This document shows positions 22,485 to 60,929 of a stretch of 64,000 nucleotides of DNA, piece after piece (the first letter of the stretch is position 1; every line of letters begins with the position of its first letter). This stretch comes from Chromatiales bacterium. Lineage in GTDB: Bacteria > Pseudomonadota > Gammaproteobacteria > Chromatiales > Chromatiaceae. The notes below the pieces were generated by a model that was not told the DNA's origin, did no database searches, and saw nothing but the letters and a program-made list of their open reading frames with translations. The position numbers and the translations under genes are program-made. The DNA is taken from positions 24,148 to 88,147 of the forward strand of contig JAKSBX010000065.1 of the NCBI GenBank assembly GCA_022360905.1, given 5' to 3'.

Positions 22485-23153
22485 TTAGCGGTTGATCAAA
22501 CCTTTCTCCAGCGCATAAGTCGTCAGCGCTGAAACATTGTGCAGATCAAGTTTTTTCATCAGGTTGGCACGGTGTTTTTCAACTGTTTTTACACTGATGC
22601 AGAGATAGTCAGCCATACTTTTATTGGTATGTCCTTCTGCAATGAGTTTCAGTATTTGACGCTCTCGTTGAGTAACCGTATCCCATCGAGTGAGGGGTTC
22701 ATTGTTGACATTATTGGTTTGCAGATAGCTGTTGACGACTTTTTCCGTTATCTCTGCGCTTAAGTATGTTTTGCCATTCAATACACGCTCAGCCGCTGTC
22801 ATTAACTCATTCTGAGTTGCATCCTTCAGAACATAACCATTGGCGCCTGCCTTAAGACTTGCCAAAACGTACTCTTCTTCATTGTGCACTGTCAGCACCA
22901 GGGTTTTGATCTCGGTATCCCGTTCTTTTATTTCGCGTATCGCATCCATGCCATTCATGCCGGGCATATTCAGATCCATGATTACCAGGTCCGGTTTGAG
23001 TTCAATGACCCGTCGTATTGCATCGCGGCCATTATCTGCTTCGCCAATCACATCGAACTGGGGATTGGAGGTTAATAATGCTTTTAATCCAGCACGCAGA
23101 ATATTGTGGTCTTCGGCGATGATGATTTTTTTCTTGTCACTGTTCATTGTCAC
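22485..23153 (-). CDS. NarL/FixJ (LuxR-HTH) family response regulator
   Basis: IAEDHNILR, VIMDLNMPGMNG receiver, and TQRERQILKLIAEG...KTVEKHRANLMKKL HTH. Confidence 0.95.
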   Translation of the reverse strand: MTMNSDKKKIIIAEDHNILRAGLKALLTSNPQFDVIGEADNGRDAIRRVIELKPDLVIMDLNMPGMNGMDAIREIKERDTEIKTLVLTVHNEEEYVLASLKAGANGYVLKDATQNELMTAAERVLNGKTYLSAEITEKVVNSYLQTNNVNNEPLTRWDTVTQRERQILKLIAEGHTNKSMADYLCISVKTVEKHRANLMKKLDLHNVSALTTYALEKGLINR

Positions 23154-23483
23154 CCGAACCTATCTCATCTCACTCCAGTTTTGATTCCTTTGCGCATCGT
23201 TTTCCAGCTATTACTCAGACAAGTTTAGGTGTGATTGCAGGTGATGCAAATTTCAAACCTGTCTGCCTGCTCATTCCGATGGAAATTCTTACCATTCACC
23301 ATGACACAAATTGTTTATTGAATAAACCACAAAATCGGCAGCACCGCCACTGTGAAAATCCACAGGCAAGCGTGGCTTGCTATGTATCGATTGGCGAATG
23401 GATCAAAAGTCAACTTTTCGTCTGTTTTTTTATGAATTTTAAGATTTTAAGTAGTCATAGGAAAACTCTATCTCCTATCTGTC

Positions 23484-23507
23484 AACCCTACCACCCAGGG
23501 TAGGGTT
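23484..23507. promoter_or_regulatory. Perfect inverted repeat AACCCTAC-N8-GTAGGGTT in the divergent promoter region; candidate regulator site
   Basis: 8-bp arms read directly from the sequence, between the response regulator and the giant gene. Confidence 0.4.
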
Positions 23508-23712
23508 TCTGCTGCCGCTCAAATACCGGGTTATCTCCTTTTCCAGTAGGGGCTTGCGTAGAGAAATAGCGTAGTTTCACGCAAAGCCACCTTTTATATA
23601 GATGGGTAGACTTTGGCCTAAGTACTGGTAATGGGGCTGGTAGTTTTTTTGACTTGAGTCAGATAGAGCCCCTGGAAAGTTGAATGACCAATAGGGGTCT
23701 GGAGAAAAATCC

Positions 23713-29700: not shown

Positions 29701-29754
29701 GATGCAAGACCGCAGGGCGCCAGAACCGACACCGGTGCCGATGAGAGGTTGTAA
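23713..29754 (+). CDS. Giant secreted protein (2013 aa): SdrD-B/prealbumin-like repeats, IPT/TIG-like domain, right-handed beta-helix, C-terminal choice-of-anchor-Q-like motif
   Basis: Sec signal peptide; GIFRDDDQDGFWDDTEIG and DxDxNG Ca-binding motifs; TIQDAI...GDLIIVRPGLYNE beta-helix entry; terminal DYHLEAGSPAIDAA...DIDGDARPQG...DTGADE. Confidence 0.8.
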   Translation: MINENQGYKNRGLQFVVFLCLSFLVTTLNAATLTINVVDQSGNPITDADFGFRWMLERDNTFPVDPMNPGTTADELLSLSFHASNHEIGVGTDGSSLAGNVDGSTASITDDIIPAGRYYVSVHPYSGYSLSGTSVELTATDAGVVEVTVQQYPIPTAQISIYLFEDKHPVNGVPDLPEEQNDGTVDWTQFSLFLEEPGGRYGAAGGQVIQDAFGNYLGTTYDQTCATSNPVGTGGDTPGGMINATCIDADGNPVIDVLGDGTMQPDENGYLNVKNLAPGKYGVVIIPPPNAGWQQTSTIEGSKVIDAWVKANEPAVFVEFGLPGPHVFMGFVRPFADLPPAQPGEQVATVSGTVTDMHMSRNPATTFFTGRPFPQCWVAINQVGEGGALGRAVYADACDGDSNFSVDLVPPGQYQLAVWDANLDVVFASLLFTVDPTGGSCNGGTVASCSFGDVPVFNWFTRLNTGIFRDDDQDGFWDDTEIGIGPESQETVLRWRDGTIYQAFPTDGDGLAPFDEIFPFFHWLVAEVSFGNKKATGATFVVDAGGEVRPDGGWADPTFGELNPQGQCEARGVGHSDIIISATDPRGAIGDCLGSDDGGVTWVVENARQIINPNTGNNLSRTETGLVLTQGFQGFLGQTSVMQFGKVDYVIDTPFDFTAFPPRISEYVGENGGISGIVYYATTRAEDEPQFAAAEEWEPGVPRVQLALYADGDVNCPPLTNFPTDPCDIDWNGDGIQQPDDGVIEDINGEAGIQRADVDNHPLGWVDCSPACGPGPEDVDYNGNGAFDLGDALQITHTDSWDDNLPTGCQGTNNPPGAEVDPAVDDQRCFDGLRNFNQVRDALFDGGYAFEDYDLDHLASIPAAPGYNAAVVAANLSAFYDGLNTGWPELNLPGAWLIPGDYLVESATPAGYKLVREHHKNVDYGDEYIPSLQAFPATCVGEEVMVPPYLAMATKDGSGEAAQLIAGVEAIEAPFAGEMRPLCDLKHVPLSAGQNAAAEFFLMTDVPKAGNISGMILNDLANEFNPNSPQFGEKFAPPHVPIAFYDWNGNEINRVYADKYGRYNLMVASTTTANLPMPSGMSPNMLVSCMNDAGPIPNPDFTGAAGDGVDASGNPEFIIDPHFDTQYSQFCYTFQYMPGTITYLDTPVEPVAAFAGPDQFPLDCEAPTQTPAISSVLREVVPASGIEGPFVVAGTGENIVINAKGLTAVRNPEWAEGDPLAEQNIDRDYGFGTVAGSVLVQDRSGNPVTTLGVSTWSDNAIIASTAGLAAGEYQLLVEHNNGSVSPTGITLTVGIAEGVGLGNNNSTYNVVNVPSAAYPTIQDAIGSLDNGLGGVGAGDLIIVRPGLYNEMVIMWKPVKLQGFGAETTIINARQTPTEKIIAWRELAAELVGTGTIDQLPGQLVPVPFFGGVQGALGAPIFPTEEGAGIMVAGKWTGPNRFHRNNRNRYARIDGLSIIGASTGGGIVANGYTRFLVISNNRLTTNSGFYGGGIRIGHSTLTHEINDEDDEFFRRGYNSWLEDQAEDGFMAYDDAFADNMNIHHNEIIKNGGLNGAGGGISIHTGANNYRVRSNWICGNFSKGDGAGIGHLGLSRGGQILDNTIIFNESFSQTPGTKPAGGGIFVGGLAGLRVDEETGLTLSPGSGNVNILGNQIRGNLAGAGDGGGIAMLSVNGEDIARDPDVFGRWYRVIVANNMLSNNVSGLAGAISLSDSVKTYIRYNTIANNDSTATGSQAFGITDPNQSIAKPAGVVARYHSATMMSLIDDDVAEEFPGSRFDEDDVRNRSEERMTFSDPISLVDNIVYHNRSFYWRNTDDPTTVVLENGLVPASCDNTTNTNCDITLVNVEDYTQDLAVLNGHTVNPVHPQYGPMLLRPLRNLLQTGASAVANNTYIDGYSTANNDPHNSLGPVFVNGRFNEDRNALIFPEFKVLQAAGAFDEGGNFLQVNFGPLSLLDIDGNTATADALIDYHLEAGSPAIDAAAASAGTGIYSTDIDGDARPQGARTDTGADERL

Positions 29755-29897
29755 TCATGAAAATGATCGACACACATGCAACTGAAAAGCGCCAGCCTGT
29801 CACCATGGACAATATCCTGGTTACAGGGTGGAACAAACTTCGCAAAACCACATTAGGTGAGTCAGGCGCTTACAAAATGACGAGGAGTAAACGCCCT

Positions 29898-31223
29898 ATG
29901 AAACTATTTAGTAAGCAAGCCCTTGCCGGGGCGATCGCCCTGGCACTGTTGGGCATCTCTGGCCAGGCTAGTGCCATTGTCAATGTACAGTGTCCTGGAG
30001 ATAACAACGGTGATGCAGACTGGAATGATGCTGGCGAATCCCAACCAGCGAATACCAAGTGTATACATCTGATTGCAGGCGACAGTTTTGCAAAAATGTC
30101 GGACGGCAACCCCTTGTACACCTTCGGTTTCGGTGATCAGACAGGGACACCCCCCGATCAGGTTATTGGCGAAGGTATCCTCAGTGCCGAGTGGCCAGGA
30201 CCAACCATCGAGTTGGATGAGGGAGATCAGTTCTATCTCAACCTGACCAACGTGGGTACGGTGATTCGGCCCGATCTGTTCGATCCGCACACCGTCCACT
30301 TTCATGGTTTTCCGAATGCGTCTGCAGCATTTGACGGTGTACCCGAGGTCTCGATCAGTATCAACATGGGATCGACACTGACCTACTACTACAACATTGT
30401 CGAGCCTGGCACCTACCTCTATCACTGTCACGTGGAGGCCACCGAGCATATGGAGATGGGCATGTTGGCCAACCTGTTTGTGCATCCGATACAGGACGAA
30501 CTGGGTTGCTTCGATATCGGCGCCGACAACCCTGGCACTGCGGACTACGATCCTGAAAGAGTACCAAATGGCAATTGTGCACCTGCGGTAGGTGATGCGG
30601 GTTACGTTTACAATGACGGTGATGGCACCACGGCATTTGATGTGGAGAAGGCGATCCAGCTTTCAAGCTTTGATCAGGTGTTCCACGATGCCAGCCTGTT
30701 TGTCCAGCCTCTGCCATTTGCTCTACTGGAAGGCAACTATCCACAGCTTAATGGCCGCGGTTATCCCGACACTGTCAATCCAAATGCACTTCCTGCTCCT
30801 GTAGATTCAGTGGATCCAATCACTGGCGGTACCGAGGGTAAGGTCACCGGTACGGTAGGAGAAGAGTTGACTGATGGTGCCATTACTCAGTTTCTGGGTT
30901 CCGATATCAGTGTCAATCAGGGTGAAAAGCTGCTACTGCGTCTCTCCAACGTGGGTCTGGATCGTTTCTGGACCATTACCGCGATGGGCCTGACCATGAA
31001 AGTGGTAGGCACAGGTGCGAAGCACATGCGGGGAACCGACGGCAAGAATATCTATCGTGAGGTTGCCTCCTATAACTTCGGTGGTGGTGAAACAGTCGAT
31101 CTGATCATCGATACCACTGGAGTTGCCCCCGGCACCTACTTCCTCCACGCAACTGAAGTCCATCAGATGAGTAATGCGACCCAGATGGATGGTGGCATGA
31201 TCACTGAGATCGTTGTCAACTGA
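29898..31223 (+). CDS. Two-domain multicopper oxidase subunit A (type 1 Cu site and half trinuclear ligands in domain 1; domain 2 degenerate)
   Basis: HTVHFHG (30288-30308) and YHCHVEATEHMEMGM (HCH at 30423). GAGGAG SD and a signal peptide support the start at 29898; the track ORF starts at 29757. Confidence 0.88.
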   Translation: MKLFSKQALAGAIALALLGISGQASAIVNVQCPGDNNGDADWNDAGESQPANTKCIHLIAGDSFAKMSDGNPLYTFGFGDQTGTPPDQVIGEGILSAEWPGPTIELDEGDQFYLNLTNVGTVIRPDLFDPHTVHFHGFPNASAAFDGVPEVSISINMGSTLTYYYNIVEPGTYLYHCHVEATEHMEMGMLANLFVHPIQDELGCFDIGADNPGTADYDPERVPNGNCAPAVGDAGYVYNDGDGTTAFDVEKAIQLSSFDQVFHDASLFVQPLPFALLEGNYPQLNGRGYPDTVNPNALPAPVDSVDPITGGTEGKVTGTVGEELTDGAITQFLGSDISVNQGEKLLLRLSNVGLDRFWTITAMGLTMKVVGTGAKHMRGTDGKNIYREVASYNFGGGETVDLIIDTTGVAPGTYFLHATEVHQMSNATQMDGGMITEIVVN

Positions 31224-31241
31224 GCCTGGCCGAACTAGGAG

Positions 31242-32681
31242 ATGAGATTAATGAAACAACTACTCAAACAACCTGGACGGCTTTTGGGCCTCCTGTTTTT
31301 GGGCATGAGCAGTGCGCTGACTGTGCAGCAGGCACAGGCAGAGCACGATATCCGAGGTATCTCACAGGGTGCCAATGGTGTTTTCAACCTCTATGCCTAC
31401 CCATTCAATATGAACCTGCCCGAGGGTACCAGTCTCTACATGTGGGGCTTCGGTGATCTGGATCTGGGTGAAGGCGCTTCCCATGATGCGGGTGCCAACT
31501 ACCAGTTGCCACAGTACCCCGCGCCGACACTGATCGTTACCGAGGGCGAGGCGGTCACCATCAACCTGGTGAACTATGGTGTGCCGGACAATATCTCCAT
31601 TGAGATGACCGGTCACGAGATCGATTCTCAATGTATCGATATTCCTGCACCAGGTGGTCCGACTCCGACTACCGGTGCGACAAACTGTACAGCCGGGCTG
31701 TTTACCAACGAAGCTGCTGTTGGCCAGGCCGTCAGTTATACCTTCACAGCGGGTTCCCCCGGCACCTATGTCTACCACAGTCTGGCAGGCGCGAACCCCG
31801 GGCTGCATACCGAGATGGGTCTGGTAGGGGTTATGGTTGTCAGGCCTGCTGATTTCGATCCAATCACAAACCGGACGGCCTACGGTGCCGGTACAGGAAC
31901 CGATTACGATCATGAGAATCTCTACCTGATGACCGAGGTGGATCCTGACATCCATATCCAGATGGAGAAGGGACACTACAACCACTTCACCAACACCGAT
32001 CGCTATGCCAAGGTTTGGTTCATCAACGGCCGGGTCTTCCCGGATCTGTTCCAGGGTGACTACAACACCCTGTTTCCCAACCAGCCTTATGAAGCCCTGG
32101 TCATGTCGCGTCCCGGTGATGTGGTCCTGGTACGCAACGTCAATGCAGGGCAGGATCCTCATCCCATGCACTACCATGGTGAGAACCTGCGGTTCATCGG
32201 CCGTGACGGCAAGATGTTGAGTTCCGATGGTTTGGTTGCCAACCTGGGTCGTTCGGACAACACCACCAACTCGGCACCAAAGCAGACAATTGATGCCCTT
32301 TGGACCTGGACAGGTAAAGACCTGGGTTGGGACATTTTCGGTCACGATACCGGACACAACTGTATCGATGTCAATCCGCGTGATGGATATGCAGATGCCA
32401 ACTCCGACTACCCCGGTGAGTGGTGTAATGACCACAACAAGCCAATTCCTGTCTCACTGCCTGGTGTGGGTGATCTGACCCTGGGTGGCTGGTGGAGCGG
32501 TAGCCCCTTCCTCGGGGACACCGGCGATCTGCCTCCTGGTGAGGGTGGTCTGAATCCGTTTGGTGGCTACTTCCTGGTGTGGCACTCCCATGCTGAAAAA
32601 GAGCTGACCACCTTTGACATCTTCCCTGGCGGAAGCCTGGGCTCAGTCGTTGTGCTGCCTCCTGGTACACCAATCAATTAA
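31242..32681 (+). CDS. Two-domain multicopper oxidase subunit B (trinuclear ligands only in domain 2; no type 1 Cys)
   Basis: Signal peptide; YPAPTLIVTEG and GTYVYHS in domain 1; HPMHYHG (32160) and WHSH (HSH at 32583) in domain 2. Confidence 0.88.
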   Translation: MRLMKQLLKQPGRLLGLLFLGMSSALTVQQAQAEHDIRGISQGANGVFNLYAYPFNMNLPEGTSLYMWGFGDLDLGEGASHDAGANYQLPQYPAPTLIVTEGEAVTINLVNYGVPDNISIEMTGHEIDSQCIDIPAPGGPTPTTGATNCTAGLFTNEAAVGQAVSYTFTAGSPGTYVYHSLAGANPGLHTEMGLVGVMVVRPADFDPITNRTAYGAGTGTDYDHENLYLMTEVDPDIHIQMEKGHYNHFTNTDRYAKVWFINGRVFPDLFQGDYNTLFPNQPYEALVMSRPGDVVLVRNVNAGQDPHPMHYHGENLRFIGRDGKMLSSDGLVANLGRSDNTTNSAPKQTIDALWTWTGKDLGWDIFGHDTGHNCIDVNPRDGYADANSDYPGEWCNDHNKPIPVSLPGVGDLTLGGWWSGSPFLGDTGDLPPGEGGLNPFGGYFLVWHSHAEKELTTFDIFPGGSLGSVVVLPPGTPIN

Positions 32682-32697
32682 TCGGGAGGGCACAAAC

Positions 32698-35600
32698 ATG
32701 AAAAGGTCTACTACCATGAAGCAAACACTGAAACCCATCGTAGTCGCCTGTGCCTTGGCTTTAGGTGCCGGACAGGCGAATGCATTGGATGTCTATCTCA
32801 TTGCTAAAGAGTTCACCCAGGACCTGCCCGGGGTTGCAGCAGTGGATGATCCCACCATGTGGGGTTATGCTCTGGATCCTGCAGGTGCCTGTTATAATGG
32901 TGGCGCCCCCGATGTGCTCGGTGCGGCCTGTACCGGTCCGGTGGCGAGTGCACCCGGTCCACGGATTGCCATCGATCCGGCAGATCCTGTCTTGAATATC
33001 TACCTGACCAACATGCTCACTGAAGAGACATCCATTGTGGTGCCCGGTCAGCCACTGCCTCATGCGGGCGGTGCGATGGGGCCCACCTGGAATGACGGCA
33101 GTGTCAGTAGCAGCCGCGGCGGCAACCTCGCTCTGAAGATGCGTTCTTACGGTCTGGAAGCGGCAGCCAACGGCGGCACACAGGTCTACACCTGGGATGC
33201 AGCCAACCCAATCGACAATAGCGGTTCGTTCATCTATCACACCGGCACCATGCCTCAGAAGCAGCTCTATATGGGCCTGTATGGTGCTGCCACCAAAGAT
33301 GCTGCTGTCGGCAATGTACTTTATGATCTGGATGGTACGGTAGGAAATGCAGATGATGTGACCTACGCCAACGAACTGATCCTTTTCTACAGTGACATCG
33401 ATACTCACTTCAATGAAGAAGTGGTAGCTGGAACTCTGCAGACTGCGATCGAGCGCCATCCTCAATGGTATATGATCAATGGTCAGCCTTATCAGGCAGG
33501 ATTTCCAGACATCCAAACAGGTGAGGGTGGTCTGCCGTTGACAACTTCCGGGCCAACCCTGCTGCGCTTCATCAGTGCGGCAACTGAAAAGCATGTGCCT
33601 GTTCTGCAGGGCCTCTACGGTACCATTCATGCTGAGGACGGAATCCAGTATACCTACGAGGATGATACCGGCGTCCATGCCGCACCGGTTGAGCAGTATT
33701 CTGTCGGCCTGCCTCCACTGAAAACCAGGGATGTCATCATTCAGCCCACCTTCAGTGGTCGGTATGCGATCTATGACGGCAACGGCAACATGACCAACCC
33801 GAGTGATCCTGAAGACTTCAATCAGGGCGATGAGATCGGTGGCATGCTGCGGTTCCTTGGCTTCAATGTCGGTGCCAACCAACCACCGATTGCCAATGCG
33901 GATCCAATCACCATCCAGATTCCTGAAGATCTGGGGGCCGCAACTACCTCATATCAGGTCACGGAAAACATTGATGTGTTGGCTAATGATATGGACCCGG
34001 ACGGTGATACCATCACACTGGGCACTCTCATCGGATTGCCGGATACCGGATCCATACCTGGTTTGACGTTGCAATTTCAATGTATAACAGGAACCAGTTG
34101 TGATCTATCTCTTGATTCGGCCGTTCCACCCAGTGTGGTTGGTGGAGAAACAGCTCAGTTCCAATATGAGATCACCACAGCGGCTAATCCTACGCCTGTT
34201 CAAGGTAGTGTGGATCTTACGGTTGAGGTTAATGCGGCACCTGTCCTGGCTACCGCACCACAGATCGTAATTACCACAGACGATCTGGTTGCTGATGTGG
34301 CTACCATCAATCTGGCGGATCTGGTGGCGGATGCAACCGATGCGACCGCCGGTGATACGGTAAGCGTATCGGATACGCCTCCCGTTGCCATCGCAGCCGT
34401 GCCTGCAACCACCGCAACGCTGGTGGGTTGTGACTACGTGGCAGGTACCTGCAGCATCAGCTTTGCAAGTACATCGGCACCAGCCCAGTTGAACCTGGAT
34501 TTCGCCATGACCGACGGTCTGAACCTGGTTGAGGGTCAGTCAGCGACTGTCTCCCTGGCCTTCCCTGGACCAACGCTGTTTGATGATACAACCACGCTGG
34601 ATCAGGTTGGCGCGCTGGATCTCGACGTGAACGATGTCAACCTGCCGGCCAGTTACGGTCTGGCTTTGGCCACACCTCCGTCAGCCGGTACTGCGACTGT
34701 GGAAGACGACGGTACGATTACCTATACCACAACCGCAGCGCCGTTTACCGGTGATAGCTTCACCTACTGTCTGACCAGTGCACCAGGGGATGATGTCTGT
34801 CTGGCAACTCCGCCTGCAGCAACGGTTACCATCGATCCTGCTCCGGCATCCGGATTGATCGCAGTCGGTGGCAAGACCTATACCGCTGATGAGGATTCGA
34901 TCCTTGACGTACTCGCAGCTAACGGTCTGTTGATAGGTGAATCAGCCATCAATGGCGGTACTCTGGCAGTAGTCGTGGATAGTGCACCGACCTGTGCCAA
35001 CACCGCAGCCGGTAGCTTCACCTACGATGGTGCGACTGGTTCCTTCCACTATGAACCTCTGCTGGATTGGAACAGCGTCAATCCTCCGGTGGATGACGGA
35101 GATGCCTGTACCTTGAATGACACCGCAGGTGCCAGAGGTGCCGACACGATCGTCTACCATCTGGAAGAGACCTACGATGATGGCGGTACTTTGGTAACCA
35201 TCAGTAGTAACACAGTGACGGCAGAGATTACTGTCAATCCGGTCAACGATGCACCGGTAGCTGTGAACGATACGTTCTATGTCCAGGATGCCTCTACAGC
35301 TGTAACGGATGGACAAGGTGAGCCAATATCTATGACCTTCAGTGTTGCACCAGCTGGGGTTCTCGGGAACGATACCGATCTTGAGAATGACAGCCTGCTG
35401 GCGACCGAAGTGAATGATCCTGGCAACCTGCCTCCTGCACTGGGGATCGATGGTTCCATACCAAGCTTTGCTATCAATCCCACGGCGGTCGGTGTTCTGA
35501 ACACTATCGAGTATCAGGCAAGCGATCTCGTTGCTCAGAGCAATACCGCTACTGCAGACATCGTGCGTCAGGTCTCGGTTACCCGGGCCTCCTATCTGCA

Positions 35601-35955
35601 GCGTGGCACTGCCGGTACTGGCAATGACAGATGGCGCATCAGAGGTCTGGTTGATACGACCATCCCAACCACAGGTACTGCACAAGGCGTACGGGTTTAC
35701 CTGGTACGGGTCGATATCAACGGGACACCATCGCCACGGGTTGAGATCGTTCCCACAGCGACTGGCAATAACAACGGTCGTATCCGGTCTGTCGGTGGAC
35801 AACATGTCTGGGGTATCAACGTCAACGGTGTTGGTAACAATCGACCTGAAGTTGAATTGCCAGATGGCAATGACTATCTGGAAATTGAGGTGGTTGATTT
35901 AGTCACCTACCCCGAGGCTGTCTACAACAACGTACCACTTGATATCGAGCCATAG
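32698..35955 (+). CDS. MCO-like subunit C: two nearly ligand-less cupredoxin domains plus cadherin-like/Ig (Big_9/VCBS-type) repeats
   Basis: APGPRI, GSFIYHTG, MINGQPY cupredoxin scaffold motifs, then NQPPIANAD, NAAPVLA and VNDAPVAVNDTF Ig repeats. GGGAGGG SD precedes ATG 32698. Confidence 0.8.
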   Translation: MKRSTTMKQTLKPIVVACALALGAGQANALDVYLIAKEFTQDLPGVAAVDDPTMWGYALDPAGACYNGGAPDVLGAACTGPVASAPGPRIAIDPADPVLNIYLTNMLTEETSIVVPGQPLPHAGGAMGPTWNDGSVSSSRGGNLALKMRSYGLEAAANGGTQVYTWDAANPIDNSGSFIYHTGTMPQKQLYMGLYGAATKDAAVGNVLYDLDGTVGNADDVTYANELILFYSDIDTHFNEEVVAGTLQTAIERHPQWYMINGQPYQAGFPDIQTGEGGLPLTTSGPTLLRFISAATEKHVPVLQGLYGTIHAEDGIQYTYEDDTGVHAAPVEQYSVGLPPLKTRDVIIQPTFSGRYAIYDGNGNMTNPSDPEDFNQGDEIGGMLRFLGFNVGANQPPIANADPITIQIPEDLGAATTSYQVTENIDVLANDMDPDGDTITLGTLIGLPDTGSIPGLTLQFQCITGTSCDLSLDSAVPPSVVGGETAQFQYEITTAANPTPVQGSVDLTVEVNAAPVLATAPQIVITTDDLVADVATINLADLVADATDATAGDTVSVSDTPPVAIAAVPATTATLVGCDYVAGTCSISFASTSAPAQLNLDFAMTDGLNLVEGQSATVSLAFPGPTLFDDTTTLDQVGALDLDVNDVNLPASYGLALATPPSAGTATVEDDGTITYTTTAAPFTGDSFTYCLTSAPGDDVCLATPPAATVTIDPAPASGLIAVGGKTYTADEDSILDVLAANGLLIGESAINGGTLAVVVDSAPTCANTAAGSFTYDGATGSFHYEPLLDWNSVNPPVDDGDACTLNDTAGARGADTIVYHLEETYDDGGTLVTISSNTVTAEITVNPVNDAPVAVNDTFYVQDASTAVTDGQGEPISMTFSVAPAGVLGNDTDLENDSLLATEVNDPGNLPPALGIDGSIPSFAINPTAVGVLNTIEYQASDLVAQSNTATADIVRQVSVTRASYLQRGTAGTGNDRWRIRGLVDTTIPTTGTAQGVRVYLVRVDINGTPSPRVEIVPTATGNNNGRIRSVGGQHVWGINVNGVGNNRPEVELPDGNDYLEIEVVDLVTYPEAVYNNVPLDIEP

Positions 35956-35976
35956 TTAGTATCATGGCGTGAGGCA

Positions 35977-36009
35977 CCGCCCCCTGTATTTCAGGGGGCG
36001 GATTTTTGT
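35977..36009 (+). terminator. Rho-independent terminator after the giant protein/MCO-ABC genes
   Basis: Perfect 10-bp stem CCGCCCCCTG-tattt-CAGGGGGCGG followed by ATTTTTGTT. Confidence 0.8.
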
Positions 36010-36049
36010 TAAGATCAATCGTCAAACGACACTATTCCTGGGTAGTAAC

Positions 36050-36643
36050 ATGAAAAGTTCACTCTTTTCCAACAAGACGCCTGAGGATGAGAAGGAGAGG
36101 CATCCCGGAGGCAATCCTCTGCTTGTAATCCTGGTCCTGGTGATCTGCACCATGGCCTTTGTTGCATTCACCGCATCCGTTGCCAAGGCAGATAGCAAAG
36201 CTCCGGTACAGACATTAGAAAAGGCGGCCCCCAAGCCCTGGCAACCTCCTGTCGCCAAAGCAACCGTTCCCACCCCCCCTGTGGATCAGAAAACCGCCAA
36301 GCAAATCGCTGAAAAATGGGGGGTTGAGCTACTGAGTCTGCGCCTTACCGCAGCTGGCTATATGATCGATTTCAGATTTCGGGTGCTCGATATCGAGAAG
36401 GCCAAGATCTTTTTCGATCATCGTATCAAACCACACCTCAAGGTTGAGAAATCTAATGCTAAACTACCTATACCCATGGCAGCCAAGGTAGGTGCATTCA
36501 GAGCGACCAACCGGGGTAAGAATATTAAGTCCAATAAGACCTACTATATGGTATTCGGCAATCCTGATGCCCATGTGAAATCAGGAGAAAAGGTTACAAT
36601 GGTGATTGGCGACTTCAAAGCTGAAAATTTAACAGTCAACTGA
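36050..36643 (+). CDS. Hypothetical membrane-anchored periplasmic protein
   Basis: Single N-terminal TM (LLVILVLVICTMAFVAF) and a compact domain with LRLTAAGYMIDFRFRVLD and YYMVFGNP. ATG 36050 is preferred over the track start at 35969. Confidence 0.7.
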   Translation: MKSSLFSNKTPEDEKERHPGGNPLLVILVLVICTMAFVAFTASVAKADSKAPVQTLEKAAPKPWQPPVAKATVPTPPVDQKTAKQIAEKWGVELLSLRLTAAGYMIDFRFRVLDIEKAKIFFDHRIKPHLKVEKSNAKLPIPMAAKVGAFRATNRGKNIKSNKTYYMVFGNPDAHVKSGEKVTMVIGDFKAENLTVN

Positions 36644-36665
36644 TCCGTTGACTCGAGAAGGAAAT

Positions 36666-39600
36666 ATGCAATATAGAAATCATCTGCTTGGTTTTCTAAC
36701 AATACTCGGACTGGCCTCTTCATTTGAATCCCATGCGGTAGTGACCGTCTATTGCTGCGATGCAACAGCCGAGGCTCAATTTATCCAGGATCTTTCGAAT
36801 CTACCATCTATCTCGACAGACATCACTAAAGAGAGCTTTGAAGGCAGCGACTGGGACGGCACTCGCACTACCGGTGTTCAGAGTGTGACTTCCCAAGGCA
36901 TTACCTGGGCGGGCAGTTCCACGGAATCCTCTTTTGTACGTACTTCCACCAGTGGTGGTGACGTGCATGAAGGCAGCTATCTGATGTTCCCAGTGGACAA
37001 CAGAAACGATCACCTGATACCCGATAAATACACGCTGACCGCCAGTGGTACCACGCTGTATGGTGTTGGCGGCTGGTTCCGCAGTAGTACCGGGGCAAAG
37101 ATCGGTTTTACCACCAACGGCTCGGCTCCGGTCGATTTCACCGGTGCAGACGCCACAGTGTCCGACTGGACCTTTCTCGGTTTCATCGATGATGCCGGTT
37201 TTACCACGGTACTGGTAGAGGCTGTGGATGAAGGGGGAGATGAGGTCAATATCTTCTTCTCGGATGATTTCACACTGGGTGCCCAATCCGGCGCATTCCC
37301 CGGACAGAAACTGCAGTTCAGCAGCGCCACCTACAGTGTGGCTGAGAATGCCGCTACGCTTCAGATCACCGTGGAACGCACCGGTGGTACCAGTGGCACA
37401 CTCTCCGCTGACTATGCGAGCGATAGTGAAAGCGGTACAGCGAGCGCCAATCAGGACTACACGCCGGTTTCGGGAACACTCAATTTTGCTGATGGTGAGA
37501 GCAGTCAGCAGATTACCATCGATATTCTGGATGACACCGTCTTCGAGGATAGTGAGAGCTTTACGATCAATCTGAGCGGTCTCAATATCGGCGCGCAAAA
37601 CAGTGCCACGGTGACCATCACCGATAACGATGCGCCGGCGGTGGGACAGGTGCAGTTCAGCAGCAGCAACTATACCTTCAGTGAAGGAGACGGCAGCGTT
37701 ACCATCACCGTACAGCGGGATGGTGGCAGTTCCGGCAGCGGTTCTGTGGATTACGCCATGAGCGATGGGACAGCAACGGCAGGCAGCGATTACACAGCCG
37801 CCTCCGGTAGCCTGTCATTTATCGATGGTCAGATCAGCAGCAGCGTGACTCTGGACATCACAGATGATGCAACGGCTGAAGGTACAGAGACGTTGCTGAT
37901 CACCCTATCGAATCCGGTATCGGTATCGCTGGCCGCCAGGGATGTTGCAGAGGTCTCTATTACCGATAACGAGCCGGTTTCGAGCTCGGGAAGTCTGCAG
38001 TTCAGCGGTTCAAACTATACCGCCGCGGAGAGCGATACATCGATACAGGTGCCCGTGACCAGGACGAATGGGAGCAGTGGGGCCGTTTCCATCGTCTGCT
38101 CTACCAGCGATCTTACAGCCACGGCAGGGTCCGACTATACGGCTACTCAAGCAACGGTCAATTTTGCTGATGGTGAACTCACCAGCAACTGTGTGATACC
38201 TATTCTGGATGACAGCAGCTACGAAACCGATGAGACTCTGATGGTCACGCTTGCAACGCCCTCTGGTGGTGCCGTCCTTGGCACACCGGCATCAGCGGTA
38301 GTGACCCTGAGCAGCGATGACTCGATACCCGCCATGGGTAGTCTGCAGTTCAGCCTCTCGGAGTATCAATTGAATGAGGATGGCGGTACAGCCACGATTG
38401 CAGTTTCCCGCTCAGGAGGTAGCAGTGGTGCCGTCGGGGTCAGCTACGCTTCCAGCGATTCCACGGCAACGGCTGGTGAGGATTACACCGCTGCATCCGG
38501 CAGCTTGAGTTTTGCCGATGGCGTAACCAGCGGATCATTCCAGGTATCACTCCTCGATGACAGCGAATACGAGGGGGATGAGCGGGTCACGCTGACGTTG
38601 AGCAATCCAACCGGTGGCGCCGTGCTGGGGCAGACCTCTCAGGTTGATTTGGTGATCAGCGAAGACGATCTGGCACCGGCAACCGGCCTGCTGGTTTTCA
38701 GTGCCAGCGACATTGGCGCGGACGAGGCGGATGGTCTGATTGAGGTAACGGTGGAACGTCAGGGTGGCAGTAGTGGCGCTGCACAAATCAACTATGCAAC
38801 TGCAGATGGCACTGCAATTGCTGGTATCGATTACCAGGTGGCCAGTGGTACCCTTATGTTTGCCGATGGTGAGCTGTCGAAGACATTTGAAGTCACCATC
38901 ATTGATGATGGTCTATTCGAGGGCACAGAGACCATCAATCTGATTCTCTCGGATGCGGTTGGCGCATCACTGGGTGAGACCGCTACGGCAACCATCAGCG
39001 TCACGGATGATGACGAGCCGCCTGCGGCCGGTTCCCTGATCTTCTCCAATTCAGCCATCACAGCGGCTGAGGATGGTGGCGACGTCACCGTTACCGTTTC
39101 ACGCAGTGGCGGTTCAACCGGTGCCGTATCGGTTGATTACAATACGGCGGATGGCACTGCGATTGCCTCTTCAGACTATACCTACACCTCCGGCAGCATC
39201 AGTTTTGCCGATGGCGATGCAGCCGATAAGACCTTTACTGTCCCACTGTTGAACGATTCTGCCGTGGAATCCGATGAGACCATCTTGTTACAGATGAGTA
39301 ACTTTCAGGGTGGGGCGGTAGCCGGTGATCAGAGCAGCGGTCAGATTACCATCACCGATGATGATGTACTCAACGCATCTACCGTAATCGGTTTCACCAT
39401 CACCAGCCTTACTGTGAATGAATCTTCAGTCAATGCGAGCTTCACTATCGATCGTAGTGTCGTTCTGACCGGCACGGTCAGTGTCGACCTGAGTGTTGGT
39501 ACATCAACCGCTGTTGCCGGTAGCGATTTCAATGTCACCACAGGAACTCTGCAGTTTGCCAGTGGCGAGACGCAAAAGACAATCAATGTGGAGATCATTG

Positions 39601-39881
39601 ACAATACGGTTGTTGACGGAGACCGGACAATTACCTTTGTCCTGGGTAATGCGTCCGGTACCGCGACCATCGATAGCAACAGTGGCAGCTTCACGCTGAC
39701 CATCTCCGATGATGATCAGGATGGCGGCAGCGATGGAGATGACAATGGCGGCGGTGGAGGTGGCGGATCCGCTGATTTGTTGCTTCTGCTGGGCTTGATG
39801 ATCCTATTCTTTGGTTATCTGCAGCTGCAGAATGCCCGCCAGGCTCGAGCCTTCGCAAAACGTCGTGTCGAAGAGCAGTAA
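36666..39881 (+). CDS. Calx-beta repeat surface protein (7 repeats) with C-terminal GlyGly-CTERM sorting signal
   Basis: Signal peptide; seven LQFS..Y...E...ITV.R.GG...DY...SGTL.FADG repeats; C-terminus GGGGGGSADLLLLLGLMILFFGYL...KRR. Confidence 0.88.
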   Translation: MQYRNHLLGFLTILGLASSFESHAVVTVYCCDATAEAQFIQDLSNLPSISTDITKESFEGSDWDGTRTTGVQSVTSQGITWAGSSTESSFVRTSTSGGDVHEGSYLMFPVDNRNDHLIPDKYTLTASGTTLYGVGGWFRSSTGAKIGFTTNGSAPVDFTGADATVSDWTFLGFIDDAGFTTVLVEAVDEGGDEVNIFFSDDFTLGAQSGAFPGQKLQFSSATYSVAENAATLQITVERTGGTSGTLSADYASDSESGTASANQDYTPVSGTLNFADGESSQQITIDILDDTVFEDSESFTINLSGLNIGAQNSATVTITDNDAPAVGQVQFSSSNYTFSEGDGSVTITVQRDGGSSGSGSVDYAMSDGTATAGSDYTAASGSLSFIDGQISSSVTLDITDDATAEGTETLLITLSNPVSVSLAARDVAEVSITDNEPVSSSGSLQFSGSNYTAAESDTSIQVPVTRTNGSSGAVSIVCSTSDLTATAGSDYTATQATVNFADGELTSNCVIPILDDSSYETDETLMVTLATPSGGAVLGTPASAVVTLSSDDSIPAMGSLQFSLSEYQLNEDGGTATIAVSRSGGSSGAVGVSYASSDSTATAGEDYTAASGSLSFADGVTSGSFQVSLLDDSEYEGDERVTLTLSNPTGGAVLGQTSQVDLVISEDDLAPATGLLVFSASDIGADEADGLIEVTVERQGGSSGAAQINYATADGTAIAGIDYQVASGTLMFADGELSKTFEVTIIDDGLFEGTETINLILSDAVGASLGETATATISVTDDDEPPAAGSLIFSNSAITAAEDGGDVTVTVSRSGGSTGAVSVDYNTADGTAIASSDYTYTSGSISFADGDAADKTFTVPLLNDSAVESDETILLQMSNFQGGAVAGDQSSGQITITDDDVLNASTVIGFTITSLTVNESSVNASFTIDRSVVLTGTVSVDLSVGTSTAVAGSDFNVTTGTLQFASGETQKTINVEIIDNTVVDGDRTITFVLGNASGTATIDSNSGSFTLTISDDDQDGGSDGDDNGGGGGGGSADLLLLLGLMILFFGYLQLQNARQARAFAKRRVEEQ

Positions 39882-39899
39882 CATAAAAGGGTACATACG

Positions 39900-40700
39900 A
39901 TGGATAAGAGAGCATGGATTAACGATTCGATTGAAAAGTGTTTCAGTGGCTTGCTAAAGGCATCTGTACTTTCGGTTGCCATGTTCGCCACTTCCGGAGT
40001 CAATGCCGCCGAATTGCCAAGCATTGTGAAATCCAACGCTGATAAACCCCTTGGTCCACAGTTCAAACTCGACTGTGTCACCAAGCCGGGCAAGCCTCAG
40101 AGTCTCGGTGATCGTTTTAAAGTAGCCATGAACATGCATGACCATTCCCAGCACAGTGGTCACGATGAACATGCCCATCACCGTGCCATGATGGAGGACA
40201 AGTCGTACAAGGTAAATCATGCCAGCTATCAGATACCGGATGTAAATCTGACCTCTCACAAAGGGGAGCAACAGCAACTGGCGGATATCCTGAACAATGA
40301 CAAGCCGGTGATGCTGAACTTCATCTTCACAACCTGTACCACCATCTGCCCGGTTCTGTCGGCCAGTTTTCACCAGGTACAAGAGATTCTGGGTGATGAG
40401 GTAGATAGCGTTTCCATGGTATCGATCACCATCGATCCGGACTACGACACGCCTGAACAGTTGATGAAATATTCGAAAAGATTCAAGGCAGGCGAACAGT
40501 GGAATTTTTATACCGGCAGCTACAAAGATGTGGTTACCGTAGAAAAAGCCTTCGATATCTTCCGTGGTTCAAAAATGAATCACGAACCGATTACCCTGAT
40601 TAGGGATCAAGGTGGACAGCACTGGACGCGTATCAATGGTCTGGCCAGTGCAGAAGATATTGTTAAGGAGTACAAAAAGATCGTAGCGGCTGCAAATTGA
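39900..40700 (+). CDS. SCO1/SenC family copper chaperone with His/Met-rich N-terminal extension
   Basis: FIFTTCTTICP (CxxxC), MNHEP conserved His, ITIDPDYDTPE, and MNMHDHSQHSGHDEHAHHRAMM. Confidence 0.92.
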   Translation: MDKRAWINDSIEKCFSGLLKASVLSVAMFATSGVNAAELPSIVKSNADKPLGPQFKLDCVTKPGKPQSLGDRFKVAMNMHDHSQHSGHDEHAHHRAMMEDKSYKVNHASYQIPDVNLTSHKGEQQQLADILNNDKPVMLNFIFTTCTTICPVLSASFHQVQEILGDEVDSVSMVSITIDPDYDTPEQLMKYSKRFKAGEQWNFYTGSYKDVVTVEKAFDIFRGSKMNHEPITLIRDQGGQHWTRINGLASAEDIVKEYKKIVAAAN

Positions 40701-42331
40701 TGCAAAAGCTTAACAAAAAGATTACGGCGTTAATGCTATTCGCCGCTCTGGTCATATTCTCTACAGCCTCGCAGAATGAAGTGGAGGTTGATTCCAAGGC
40801 CTACTCAACAGGTAAATCGCTCTACAAACAGGGTATTTTACCGAATGGCGAACTGGTTAAAGCGACCATTCAGGGCGATATCTCTGTGGAAGGTGATCAG
40901 TTAATCTGTGAGACCTGTCACCGCAAGAGCGGCTTGGGTTCCACCGAAGGCCAGCAGGTGGTCCCGGCTGTTGCAGGTAGCGTGCTTTTCAAACCTTTGA
41001 AGCTGCCCACCAGCAAACCGCCCGAGCCGCCGGTATATCGCGAAGCCTATACCCGAGAGACCTTAATGGCAGCGATCAGAGACGGCGTCGATGCCAATGG
41101 GCAACCATTGGATCCTTTCATGCCCAGATATCAGATCGATGATGAGGCGTTGGACGGTTTAATGGCCTATGTCAGTACCCTGTCCAATACCCCGTCTCCG
41201 GGCGTAACCGAAGAGACCATCCATTTCGCAACCATCGTCTTGTCCTCAAACAAAAAGGAGGAGAACAAGGCATTGATCGATGTGATGGAGACTTATGTCG
41301 AACAAAAAAATATAGAAACAAGATATGAGACGAAAAGGGCACAGAACGCACCTTGGCATAAGGAGTGGATGTTCAAGCCCTATCGAAAGTGGCAGATACA
41401 TATTTGGGAACTGACAGGTGCCGAAGAGACCTGGCCGGAACAACTCAGTACCTACTATTCCAATCAACCGGTTTTCGCCCTGGTCAATGGTTTGGTTCCT
41501 ACTGGCTGGAATCGGGTCAGTGAGTTCTGTGAGGGGCATGGCATACCCTGTCTGTTTCCTACAACGCAACAGCCGGTTATCCGTGATGATAATTACTACA
41601 CCATCTATCTGAATAAGGGTGTCACACATGAGGCTGAGGCGGTTGCTTCCTATATCAAGAAAAACCGTCCTGCCGCTCGAGTGGTACAGGTTTATGATGA
41701 TTCTGAAACACTGAGTACTGTCTCATCCAATGCGCTCATAGATGAGCTTAACAAGGGTGGGATCAGCGTAGATACTGTTTCTCTGGGGCAACTTGGAGGA
41801 AAAGAATCGAAAGCTTTTCTGAGCGGCCAAGACGATACGGTTGTATTGTGGCTGGACAAAGTGAAATCAGAGCAACTCTTCAATAGTAGGCAGCTGAATA
41901 GCGCAGAGTTGATCATGCTTTCCAGCCAGTATTATGGAACTGACACCAAGCGGATCCCCCAGGATTTGACGAATTCTGTTCTGTTGATTCACAGTTCTGA
42001 AATGCCTGATAAACTGAGCAGGTTACTGATTCGCTCAACGGGTTGGTTTAGAGCAAAACGCATCTATAATAAAGAGGAGAAAGAGATTCAGGCCAATGCC
42101 TACTTCGCTTTGAAGGTACTTGGTGATGCGGTGAAGCATATACGTGGCTACTTCTATCGTGACTATATGATTGAAAAGATTGAACACATGATTGATGACT
42201 TACCTTATACCTCGATCTTTCCGCGCCTCAGTATGGCGCCAGATCAAAGGTTTGCATCTCGGGGCTTCTATGTGGCTAAAACTGACGGAAAAGGAGGAAT
42301 TGTTAATCTCACCGGTTGGATAACTCCCTGA
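40697..42331 (+). CDS. Monoheme c-type cytochrome fused to a type I periplasmic binding-protein-like domain
   Basis: Signal peptide, CETCH heme motif, distal FMPRY Met, then PVFALVNG...FCEGHGIPCLFP periplasmic-binding-like region. Confidence 0.75.
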   Translation: MMQKLNKKITALMLFAALVIFSTASQNEVEVDSKAYSTGKSLYKQGILPNGELVKATIQGDISVEGDQLICETCHRKSGLGSTEGQQVVPAVAGSVLFKPLKLPTSKPPEPPVYREAYTRETLMAAIRDGVDANGQPLDPFMPRYQIDDEALDGLMAYVSTLSNTPSPGVTEETIHFATIVLSSNKKEENKALIDVMETYVEQKNIETRYETKRAQNAPWHKEWMFKPYRKWQIHIWELTGAEETWPEQLSTYYSNQPVFALVNGLVPTGWNRVSEFCEGHGIPCLFPTTQQPVIRDDNYYTIYLNKGVTHEAEAVASYIKKNRPAARVVQVYDDSETLSTVSSNALIDELNKGGISVDTVSLGQLGGKESKAFLSGQDDTVVLWLDKVKSEQLFNSRQLNSAELIMLSSQYYGTDTKRIPQDLTNSVLLIHSSEMPDKLSRLLIRSTGWFRAKRIYNKEEKEIQANAYFALKVLGDAVKHIRGYFYRDYMIEKIEHMIDDLPYTSIFPRLSMAPDQRFASRGFYVAKTDGKGGIVNLTGWITP

Positions 42332-42370: not shown

Positions 42371-43762
42371 TTGATGGATAACAATATCAACTACAACGCA
42401 ACGCAATACAGGGAAGAGTATCAACTGGCCAAACGTTTTGGCGTGATCAGTTTTATCGCCATTATCCTGATTGCCGTCGCCATACTTTTTCTATTTCGCT
42501 ATGAATCCGCCCGCATCATCCAGGACTCGACAATGCAGAGCAACGAGTCACTGACCATCGCCACAGAGTATACACTGAATGACCATTTTGTGATGCATAT
42601 GAATCTCATGAAGCTGAATGAGAAAAAGCCTGGCGAAATGCCTCTTGAGCCGATGTTGGAGCGTGCAATACAGAGAATGATACGGGATACGAATGTAGAC
42701 CGTGTTAAACTCTATGATAGATCCGGAAAGGTTGCCTACTCTTCCAGGACGGATGCATACGATGATGAAGACGAGGATAATGATGGCTTTATCTCTGCGC
42801 TATCGGGAACTCCCAGAACGGTTTTGAACTACAGGGACAGCTTCAGTATTTTTAATACCAATGACCGTGATGTCAATCTGGTGCAGACTTATGTACCAAT
42901 TCGTGCCAGTGAGCAGTCACCTGTCATGGGTGTGATGGAAATTTACTATGACATCAGTGATTATGTCAGCCATGCTATGCGGGCAATCATCATTGTAATG
43001 TCTGTCACGATGTTATTAATGCTTTTTCTCTATACCTTCCTGCTAATGCATATCAAGCGTTCTGAAAGGATTATTGATGCACAAAACCGGATTACCCGAG
43101 AGAAAAAAGCGATGCTTGAATTTCTCACGGCAAAAATGATCAATGCCCAGGAGGATGAGAAGAAACGTATCGCCTTTGAGTTGCATGAGGATGTGGTTCA
43201 GACGCTTTCCGGTGTCAAGATGCAACTAGAAAAATATATATTACAATTTGACAAACAGGATGACGGAGCTGAGGCAGATCAGCTCACTACTCTCATCATA
43301 CCCACCTTGCAGAATGCTGCGCACAAAATCCGCGCTGTGGCACTGGATTTACGCCCGCCTAGCCTGGATGATTTCGGTCTTAAAGCTGCACTTAATTCGT
43401 TGGTATCTGAGTGTCATACGGTTACTACAGGATTGCAGATCTCAGTAGATGTTTCAGTCAATGAAGAGTTGATATCTCAGGATCAAAAATCAATTCTCTA
43501 CAGAATGTTCAAGGATACACTCAAGGCTATCTGCTTCGATGAAAAAATCGATGGCGAAGTGATTATTTCCCTGAACAATATTGATGATCTGCTACAGCTT
43601 CAAGCCAAGATAGTCAGTAAACAAACAAATCTCAGCTACGCTGGGCAGTTGCCTGGCTATTTTGTTGCCATGCAGGAGAAAACCATACTGTCGGGTGGTG
43701 AGTTTTTTGTCATTGAAATGTCAGCAAATCTGCTGGAAGTCAAAGCTGTCTGGTCCTATTGA
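42371..43762 (+). CDS. Membrane sensor histidine kinase-like protein (HisKA_3) with a degenerate ATPase domain
   Basis: Two TMs flanking a periplasmic domain; ELHEDVVQTL H-box and LRPPSLDDFGL present; N, G1 and G2 boxes unrecognizable. Confidence 0.8.
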   Translation: MMDNNINYNATQYREEYQLAKRFGVISFIAIILIAVAILFLFRYESARIIQDSTMQSNESLTIATEYTLNDHFVMHMNLMKLNEKKPGEMPLEPMLERAIQRMIRDTNVDRVKLYDRSGKVAYSSRTDAYDDEDEDNDGFISALSGTPRTVLNYRDSFSIFNTNDRDVNLVQTYVPIRASEQSPVMGVMEIYYDISDYVSHAMRAIIIVMSVTMLLMLFLYTFLLMHIKRSERIIDAQNRITREKKAMLEFLTAKMINAQEDEKKRIAFELHEDVVQTLSGVKMQLEKYILQFDKQDDGAEADQLTTLIIPTLQNAAHKIRAVALDLRPPSLDDFGLKAALNSLVSECHTVTTGLQISVDVSVNEELISQDQKSILYRMFKDTLKAICFDEKIDGEVIISLNNIDDLLQLQAKIVSKQTNLSYAGQLPGYFVAMQEKTILSGGEFFVIEMSANLLEVKAVWSY

Positions 43763-48458: not shown

Positions 48459-48485
48459 GTGTGCCCCTATGCTTGCTATTGCCGG

Positions 48486-60750: not shown

Positions 60751-60816
60751 GCACGATCCAGGAATAGGGCTCAGCAATTTAAAATGCTAGTCTGTTCATT
60801 ACTTTGGTTAGGATTC

Positions 60817-60929
60817 AGGGAAGCTCTGATCGATTCACTTTCGTCATCCCGGCGAATGCCGAGATTCAGGATAACTAAGCACATGGATTCCGGTATCCAC
60901 AGGAATGACGGATTAATCAGAAGTTCCTT
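60817..60929. repeat. REP/MITE-like palindromic element, copy 2, between gspD and gspE
   Basis: Imperfect terminal inverted repeats AGGGAAGCTCTGATCGATT / GATTAATCAGAAGTTCCTT enclose CGTCATCCCGGCGAATGCC...GGAATGACG. Confidence 0.7.

Follow-up and report, generated by a model that had tools for sequence, protein, structure and literature searches.

To our knowledge, the pseudo-histidine kinases known from bacteria amount to a handful, such as DivL and RcsD, joined more recently by PsmA; most of them are cytoplasmic or hybrid. In Pseudomonas, RetS is a sensor-kinase-like protein that does not act as an autokinase and modulates the output of GacS. The term, which has been applied to RcsD (PMC3762810), denotes proteins that lack at least one kinase function but form part of two-component networks (Collins and Childers, as relayed in PMC12632262). 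Here we describe such a protein from Candidatus Thiodiazotropha, a sulfur-oxidising symbiont of lucinid clams. It is encoded in a 64,000-nucleotide window (the whole stretch of DNA that was analysed; contig JAKSBX010000065.1 of assembly GCA_022360905.1, positions 24,148 to 88,147), and combines a transmembrane sensor and the histidine-bearing DHp domain of HisKA_3 kinases with a catalytic, ATP-binding (CA) domain from which the nucleotide-binding motifs have gone. Comparative sequence evidence makes it very probable that selection has maintained this protein as a pseudokinase and that it works in a module with a soluble kinase and a NarL-type response regulator of the same window (hereafter, by their first coordinates, the 21534 kinase and the 22485 regulator), and the mechanism that we tentatively favour is that of a signal-gated phosphatase of this regulator.

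Among the described systems, the best structural and profile matches are DesK of Bacillus subtilis and NarX of E. coli, bifunctional kinase/phosphatases that share with the pseudokinase a HisKA_3 DHp domain, an acidic residue directly after the phospho-accepting histidine (H+1), a glutamine at H+5, the CA fold and a NarL-type regulator as partner. In kinases of this family the glutamine, one turn past the histidine, positions the water that hydrolyses the acyl phosphate of the regulator, and the acidic H+1 residue pairs with a regulator arginine (PMC5231405). Their phosphatase chemistry is dependent on the glutamine and independent of the histidine, which is buried and inessential for dephosphorylation (shown for NarX, and seen in the DesK-DesR complexes), while in DesK-DesR the CA domain docks on the DHp domain and contacts the regulator (PMC5231405). 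DesK and NarX, however, bind ATP and autophosphorylate, whereas the pseudokinase is devoid of the N, G1 and G2 boxes, has glutamate rather than aspartate at H+1, senses through a periplasmic Cache domain and is genetically linked to a second, soluble kinase.

A comparable partition of tasks is found in the CheA3/CheA4/CheY6 system of Rhodobacter sphaeroides, where one protein holds a phospho-accepting histidine and a phosphatase without a kinase domain, the kinase resides in a second protein and both serve one regulator: CheA4 phosphorylates CheA3 in trans, and CheA3 acts as relay and phosphatase (PMC3591291). The system differs in its CheA architecture (P1 HPt, not DHp) and in CheA4 lacking a histidine of its own, whereas the 21534 kinase is complete; moreover, trans-phosphorylation has been demonstrated there and is hypothetical for the pseudokinase module. 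DivL of Caulobacter is likewise a histidine-kinase scaffold without catalysis (structural match 4q20), retained under selection within a multi-kinase network, but it is of the HisKA type, cytoplasmic and PAS-based, has tyrosine for histidine, signals in the reverse direction on sensing DivK~P and controls CckA; its kinship with the pseudokinase holds at the level of the fold and not of the sequence. RetS (with GacS) and RcsD of the enterobacteria resemble the pseudokinase as sensor-kinase-like proteins that are not autokinases and that modulate the output of another kinase to one regulator; unlike it, they belong to the HisKA type, are hybrids or contain an HPt domain, have other sensors and no HisKA_3 DHp domain, and are not homologous to it at the family level.

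The H-box of the pseudokinase reads LHEDVVQTL, with both histidine (H272) and glutamine (Q277) present. Alignment to canonical relatives highlighted the replacement of all three nucleotide-contacting motifs: the N-box YRIVQEaLNN became YRMFKDTLKA (QE changed to KD, and the Mg-binding asparagine to Ala386), the G1 motif DNGxGF became AKIVSK, and the G2 motif GxGL-x-MRER became PGYFVAMQEK, in which GxGL itself is PGYF. The original prediction had noted the missing DxGxG and the altered N box and G2 region, and both the motif search and the alignment bear it out; all the strings that it quoted are in the protein, namely ELHEDVVQTL (residues 270-279), LRPPSLDDFGL, YRMFKDTLKA (377-386) and FVAMQEKTILSGG (431-443). 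HisKA_3 was the sole Pfam match (residues 263-332; 36.1 bits against a cut-off of 24, E = 9.8e-9) and HATPase_c gave no Pfam match even at E <= 1, whereas the 21534 kinase matched both families in the same run. Since NCBIfam kinase models (e.g., UhpB) align over residues 247-449, the C-terminal domain is, as regards its extent, a homologue of kinase catalytic domains. Automatic annotation labels these proteins 'histidine kinase', a designation that is probably incorrect if taken literally: the DHp domain with its H-box histidine is there and the ATP-binding motif set is not, and since the latter is the defining catalytic-motif test, the protein should not be filed as a functional kinase. Judged by its motifs, it would be unable to autophosphorylate.

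An AlphaFold2 model built on 98 relatives (mean pLDDT 88.9, with values of 92-96 across most of residues 341-463) predicts a long TM1 helix, a single PDC/Cache-like alpha/beta domain (49-203), an unbroken helix (196-295) that unites TM2, the linker and DHp helix 1 without a HAMP domain, then DHp helix 2 and, over residues 355-462, a CA-like domain of beta-alpha-beta-beta-loop-alpha-beta-beta order. The two transmembrane (TM) helices flanking a periplasmic domain that had been proposed from the sequence are thus recovered (Table 1). Foldseek placed the model among histidine kinases, its best matches for single domains being the VraS CA domain (4gt8; TM-score 0.77, root-mean-square deviation 2.8 A) and DesK (TM-score 0.6-0.74); the DivL structure was matched as well. 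Searching the PDB sequences with the single pseudokinase sequence gave no match; the family profile was required, and it recovered DesK and VraS at ~1e-12 (VraS CA domain, E = 1.6e-12). Together with the motif alignment, the model and the Foldseek and profile matches indicate that the fold was kept and the nucleotide-binding residues were lost. At the fold level the predicted domain is a GHKL/Bergerat-fold CA domain, and it still has R378, E436, LSGG (440-443) and W461. We discarded a hidden or frameshifted true kinase domain, given that the last 123 residues stay in the reading frame, align over their full length to canonical CA domains and are confidently modelled.

The pseudokinase is not an isolated case. 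Its nearest relatives share 92% identity, and full-length relatives (450-470 aa) of the same architecture extend down to 25%. An exhaustive search yielded 114 clusters (50% identity) at E <= 1e-30. HisKA_3 was matched in 95 and HATPase_c in 12 of 98 cluster representatives; in a motif count, the N-box asparagine and G1 were both missing from 193 of 200 full-length relatives, hence the loss is neither due to chance nor a feature of a single gene. In a maximum-likelihood tree (terminal branches of ~0.3-1.6 substitutions per site) the 90 dead-CA representatives fall on one side of a branch with 96% support in the Shimodaira-Hasegawa-like approximate likelihood ratio test (SH-aLRT), opposite to the intact-CA relatives, and the simplest reading is that ATP binding was lost once, anciently, and that the resulting protein was long retained. 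The intact sister clade is small (e.g., L120, L121, P0228, P0254, P0263), and its members are alike in length, Cache sensor, TM topology and DHp family, but keep the motifs LHDxxxQ, QEALNN, DxGxGF and GLGLxGMRER and belong to ordinary kinase-regulator pairs; for two intact-domain relatives with the same Cache sensor, no second kinase was present in 14-20 kb. A profile search in 400 genomes across the class returned mostly partial matches (the sensor alone, on proteins of ~700 aa, or the DHp-CA part of ordinary kinases) and only ~4 full-length ones, hence the family is rare outside certain lineages.

Among the Thiodiazotropha orthologues, the ratio of nonsynonymous to synonymous substitution rates (dN/dS, Nei-Gojobori) was 0.04-0.09 overall, 0.05-0.16 in the CA-like domain, 0.02-0.10 in the DHp domain and 0.04-0.09 in the Cache domain; as dS is near saturation the ratios are rough, but their purifying direction is clear. 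The dead domain is therefore under purifying selection, and relaxed selection, which the original prediction had listed among the outcomes that would count against it, is refuted. The dN/dS values, the tree and the depth of the family agree with what had been claimed from the sequence, namely that this is a conserved pseudokinase with a full-length reading frame that is not decaying.

Within the DHp domain of the dead-CA members (n = 193), Q277 (H+5) is kept in 98%, E273 (H+1) in 97% and H272 in 93%, and the transmitter-phosphatase motif of HisKA_3 proteins (acidic H+1, glutamine at H+5) is present, with Glu273, not aspartate, as the acidic residue. The histidine is changed to Q, N, E or R in 13 of the 91 dead-domain representatives of the 98-row tree (14%), which are spread over at least 7, and perhaps as many as 10, separate lineages, and in none of the intact clade; these His-less members have glutamate at H+1 in 11 of 13 cases and the glutamine in 12 of 13. 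Across surveyed HisKA_3 domains the histidine is missing in 0.3% (56 of 16,025; PMC12632262), which makes its loss ~41-fold enriched in the dead-CA family. The gene neighbourhoods of two His-less members were uninformative, both contigs being under 2 kb.

The sensorless 21534 kinase had been put forward as the likely partner, and the position of its homologues and of those of the 22485 regulator, which adjoin or bracket homologues of the pseudokinase in many genera and two proteobacterial classes, makes it a well-supported candidate. It has ~100 residues ahead of its H-box and no TM, PAS or GAF match. Six HisKA_3 proteins are encoded in the genome; leaving aside the pseudokinase and the 21534 kinase, a NarL-type regulator of its own lies next to each of the remaining four, and the 21534 kinase is the one other protein that the pseudokinase matches at E <= 1e-5. 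The 20-kb form, in which kinase and regulator on one side and pseudokinase on the other bracket an extracellular oxidase operon, was found in G000, G009, G087 and G116, the last three being two further Thiodiazotropha genomes and another genus, where the pseudokinase is 38% identical. In a Ctena symbiont (L011) kinase, regulator and pseudokinase follow in order with no oxidase operon between them; two Sedimenticolaceae (L020, L035) have the order kdsB, kinase, regulator, SCO1, pseudokinase, a 2013-aa gene and multicopper oxidases (MCOs), and in a member of Burkholderiales (L029) the MCOs and the 2013-aa gene lie on one strand, followed by pseudokinase, kinase and regulator. Further adjacent triads (L003/L031, L123, L124, L125, L126) add to a picture in which, as the suggested co-occurrence check in homologous loci brought out, a kinase homologue adjoins or brackets the pseudokinase in many genomes, unclassified gammaproteobacteria included.

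Most of the partner kinases are sensorless, their H-box being preceded by 49-100 residues. Those of three loci (L029 11738-12361, L123 9436-10056, L124 8552-9163) have an N-terminal region of 150-515 residues, with one PAS-like start, and no membrane segment was recognised in the first 110 residues, the part that was covered; modules of this type may integrate cytoplasmic and periplasmic signals.

As a companion of the pseudokinase, the regulator is no less constant than the kinase. Other relatives have a regulator-only neighbourhood (L001/L002, L007, L032, L033), and the regulator is duplicated in G022 (contigs C228 and C35) and G092 (C124, C122, C9), with 70-72% identity to that of the window. 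In both genomes one copy is divergent from the pseudokinase; the second is on one contig with the soluble kinase, 19 kb apart, in G022, and on a different contig (C122) from the kinase (C9, at the contig end) in G092. Over 121 family genomes, orthologues of both pseudokinase and regulator were found in 13, the pseudokinase only in 4, the regulator only in 5 and neither in 99 (odds ratio 64, Fisher p = 1.7e-10, kinship ignored). Where the pseudokinase was found on its own, completeness is 80-84% in two of the 4 genomes; in a third the regulator is split, and in the fourth it falls just below the threshold. At locus L126 (7047-7695) of genome G052, the match to the regulator next to the pseudokinase is broken into two abutting pieces that differ in frame (residues 6-86 and 87-222), possibly a frameshift or an assembly error.

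The protein thus shows the loss of catalytic residues and the maintenance by selection that mark pseudo-histidine kinases. Its gene is strongly syntenic with those of a kinase and a NarL-type regulator and co-occurs with them, so that it may be integrated in a two-component network. It fits the concept exemplified by DivL, RcsD and PsmA, from which its DHp family, topology, sensor and partners set it apart.

We reason that the soluble 21534 kinase would feed phosphoryl groups to the 22485 regulator, while the pseudokinase dimer would hold the phosphorylated regulator on its DHp helix and strip off the phosphate by means of the E273-x-x-x-Q277 motif. A periplasmic signal bound by the Cache domain would toggle this phosphatase via the continuous TM2-DHp helix, so that the membrane protein would set the phosphorylation level of the regulator and the module would probably control the neighbouring extracellular MCO operon. 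The dead CA domain would be kept as a structural or regulatory module, for which the contacts that the CA domain makes with both DHp and regulator in DesK-DesR offer a plausible reason. Protein contacts, activities, signal direction and regulon are all inferred here from sequences, models and gene order. We favour phosphatase action because Q277 and E273 are the best-conserved DHp residues and outlast the histidine in the His-less lineages, and because regulator-only neighbourhoods exist. The original prediction held that the protein must be phosphorylated by a partner kinase or allosterically control it; both options are kept below as rivals, but the statement was too narrow, as it omitted the His-independent dephosphorylation of the regulator, which is slightly favoured by the sequence data given that the phospho-histidine was lost at least 7 times while E-x-x-x-Q was kept and that some relatives are regulator-only. 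A broader proposal, which we hold a shade more loosely, is that the opposing activities of a bifunctional sensor kinase were split over separate genes in an ancient and widespread division of labour. The membrane Cache sensor would then be a dedicated, signal-gated regulator phosphatase with its dead ATP-binding domain as a conformational clamp, and the soluble sensorless kinase would be a constant or separately regulated source of phosphate.

Several observations weigh against phosphatase action on the regulator or against the proposed module. The H+1 residue is glutamate, whereas the characterised HisKA_3 phosphatases have aspartate, and H272 is still kept in ~86-93% of members over very long branches; as a pure phosphatase does not obviously need a histidine, this retention would fit either a phospho-acceptor or a buried structural role such as that in the phosphatase state of DesK. 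In the window, kinase and regulator lie 20 kb from the pseudokinase, and in a Sedimenticola-type lineage the pseudokinase gene is an orphan located after gyrB. The co-occurrence statistics treat genomes as independent and ignore phylogeny. Lastly, DHp contact positions and domain similarity were compared with those of the other five HisKA_3 proteins that the genome encodes: helix 1 did not discriminate among them, DHp helix 2 and the CA domain of the pseudokinase were slightly closest to the 21534 kinase, and no clear sign emerged of a regulator common to these two proteins.

The retained histidine would be explained directly if the CA domain of the 21534 kinase phosphorylated H272 in trans (between dimers or within a mixed dimer), the phosphate then passing to the regulator and the Cache domain gating access to the histidine. 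Such a relay, the main rival reading and in effect a functional split kinase, is in keeping with the conservation of H272 and of the acidic H+1 residue in most members, and with a recurrent neighbour that is an intact kinase with little or no sensor, each of the two proteins having what the other lacks. It has precedents in CheA3/CheA4 and in HisKA-only proteins with a phosphatase motif, which were suggested to be split bifunctional kinases (PMC3591291). We nevertheless consider it doubtful: the 21534 kinase has a complete H-box and DHp domain of its own and therefore needs no external histidine, the family lost the histidine at least 7 times while retaining the rest of the protein, and several relatives possess the regulator but no kinase within 10 kb. 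Although the pseudokinase is a histidine-bearing protein without a working kinase domain, the pair departs from the split-kinase class in one defining feature, because the partner is a complete kinase with its own phospho-acceptor (ELHDGLGQ in the 21534 kinase and its homologues). By analogy with CheA3, which is both, relay and phosphatase functions would not be exclusive.

Less probable still, and in our view unlikely, is that the regulator is no direct substrate and that the pseudokinase controls the soluble kinase allosterically, either through a DHp-DHp heteromer or sequestration in the style of RetS-GacS or through recruitment to the membrane. The same synteny that underlies the phosphatase scheme would suit it, as would the 21534 kinase being the sole other match in the genome and the most similar one in DHp helix 2 and the CA domain, and DivL illustrates that a pseudo-histidine kinase can work through protein contacts alone. 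It leaves unexplained, however, the near-invariant Q277 and E273, whose counterparts face the regulator active site in DesK-DesR; the long TM2-linker-DHp helix predicts a stable homodimer, and some relatives have a regulator-only neighbourhood. A residual autokinase with non-canonical nucleotide binding is very improbable: in its favour stand the confident prediction of the CA fold and the conserved R378, E436 and LSGG, but all three nucleotide-contacting motifs are gone, the G1-lid segment of the dead-CA family varies in length and sequence, and the sister clade with the same sensor retains all three motifs. That the gene is a decaying, functionless kinase remnant, as the loss of catalytic motifs might by itself suggest, is hardly conceivable, pseudogene decay being ruled out by the dN/dS values (dead domain included), by the open full-length frame of all orthologues and by an architecture conserved from 92% to 25% identity.

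Full-text literature searches aimed at the subject found no paper on the dead-CA family or on a triad of HisKA_3 pseudokinase, soluble kinase and NarL regulator. The family is large, ancient and experimentally tractable, and consists of classical-looking transmembrane sensors whose CA domain died once and was long retained. The repeated loss of the phospho-histidine, with the phosphatase residues persisting, constitutes a natural experiment. It raises the questions of what a dead CA domain does, whether signalling can proceed by phosphatase control alone and how two kinase-like proteins share one regulator. The module also probably provides the regulatory input to an extracellular MCO operon that is conserved but uncharacterised, and that occurs in lucinid-clam symbionts as well as in relatives of iron- and sulfur-oxidisers. 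If the division of labour holds true, it would represent a natural non-chemotaxis case of a segregated kinase/phosphatase design, for which modelling predicts switch-like responses, and it would control an uncharacterised extracellular copper-oxidase system of sulfur-oxidising symbionts and their relatives.

Table 1. Features of the pseudokinase gene and its presumed module (coordinates of the window; residues of the pseudokinase)
Feature	Position	Strand	Remarks
Soluble sensorless HisKA_3 kinase	21534..22412	+	All catalytic boxes present; putative kinase partner
NarL/GerE-type response regulator	22485..23153	-	Receiver site E14, D15, D60, T88, K110 intact; putative shared substrate
Divergent intergenic region between regulator and oxidase operon	23154..23712	.	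Presumed regulatory target; no site defined
Extracellular multicopper-oxidase operon	23713..42331	+	Presumed regulon; context
Pseudo-histidine kinase open reading frame	42371..43762	+	463 aa from TTG 42371; no internal stop
TM1	42440..42508	+	Residues ~24-46; hydrophobic stretch GVISFIAIILIAVAILFLF within a long predicted helix
Periplasmic single Cache/PDC-like sensor domain	42515..42979	+	Residues 49-203
TM2	42983..43057	+	Residues ~205-229; continuous helix via a 30-residue linker to DHp helix 1; no HAMP
DHp domain, HisKA_3 type	43151..43390	+	Residues 261-340; includes X-box LRPPSLDDFGL
Key DHp codons	H272 43184-43186; E273 43187-43189; Q277 43199-43201	+	
CA-like domain	43391..43759	+	Residues 341-463; kinase ATP-binding fold without N-box Asn, G1 and G2

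The TTG at 42371 is immediately followed by ATG 42374, which has GAGA 8 nt upstream; as the orthologues are 462 aa long and start at this position (N-terminus MDNNI), ATG 42374 is probably the true start and the protein 462 aa long. In the Cache domain K113, G119, S124, N137, F140, G146, Y174, P176, G187, E190, Y192 and D194 are strongly conserved family-wide, and the sensor region of the relatives matches dCache_1 or sCache_3_2. The TM-Cache-TM module (profile positions ~8-245) also occurs on proteins of ~650-750 aa from many gammaproteobacterial families (L097, L098, L100, L104, L105, L107 and others), presumably with a different, cytoplasmic output domain; hence, the sensor is a mobile module with a conserved ligand pocket.

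Within the window, the 21534 kinase and the 22485 regulator genes are convergent, and the regulator is divergent from the gene that opens the oxidase operon. This operon codes for a secreted protein of 2013 aa, two MCOs, a cadherin-like protein, a protein of 224 aa, another with seven Calx-beta domains, SCO1 and a MofC-like fusion of cytochrome c and a periplasmic-binding protein, and the pseudokinase is the last gene of the + strand run 23713-43762, 39 nt after the preceding one. The fusion protein (40697-42331) is similar to the MofC protein described for the mofABC cluster of Leptothrix and the ompB cluster of Geobacter (PMC5566968), and the iron-oxidiser genomics paper that treats related MofC/SCO1/oxidase clusters mentions no kinase. 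The MofC-like protein stands beside the pseudokinase in Thiodiazotropha and in a 38%-identical relative (L005). It is absent from relatives outside oxidase loci, and was therefore set aside as an obligate periplasmic co-sensor, such a role not being general.

Convergent with the pseudokinase is a gene for a DegP/HtrA-like serine protease with a PDZ domain (43808-44818, - strand), beyond which lie a resistance-nodulation-division (RND) efflux pump and its membrane-fusion protein (45408-49607, - strand); protease and pump are syntenic in close Thiodiazotropha relatives (L008, L010) and not in more distant ones. The distant relatives of 34-37% identity (L001/L002 12252-21383, L007 1-8717) adjoin type II secretion or MSH-pilus-like clusters with secretin, T2SSE, T2SSF and pseudopilins, and a gspD-E-F cluster is located 15 kb downstream in the window (58507-64000). 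The oxidase complex may be secreted under the control of the module.

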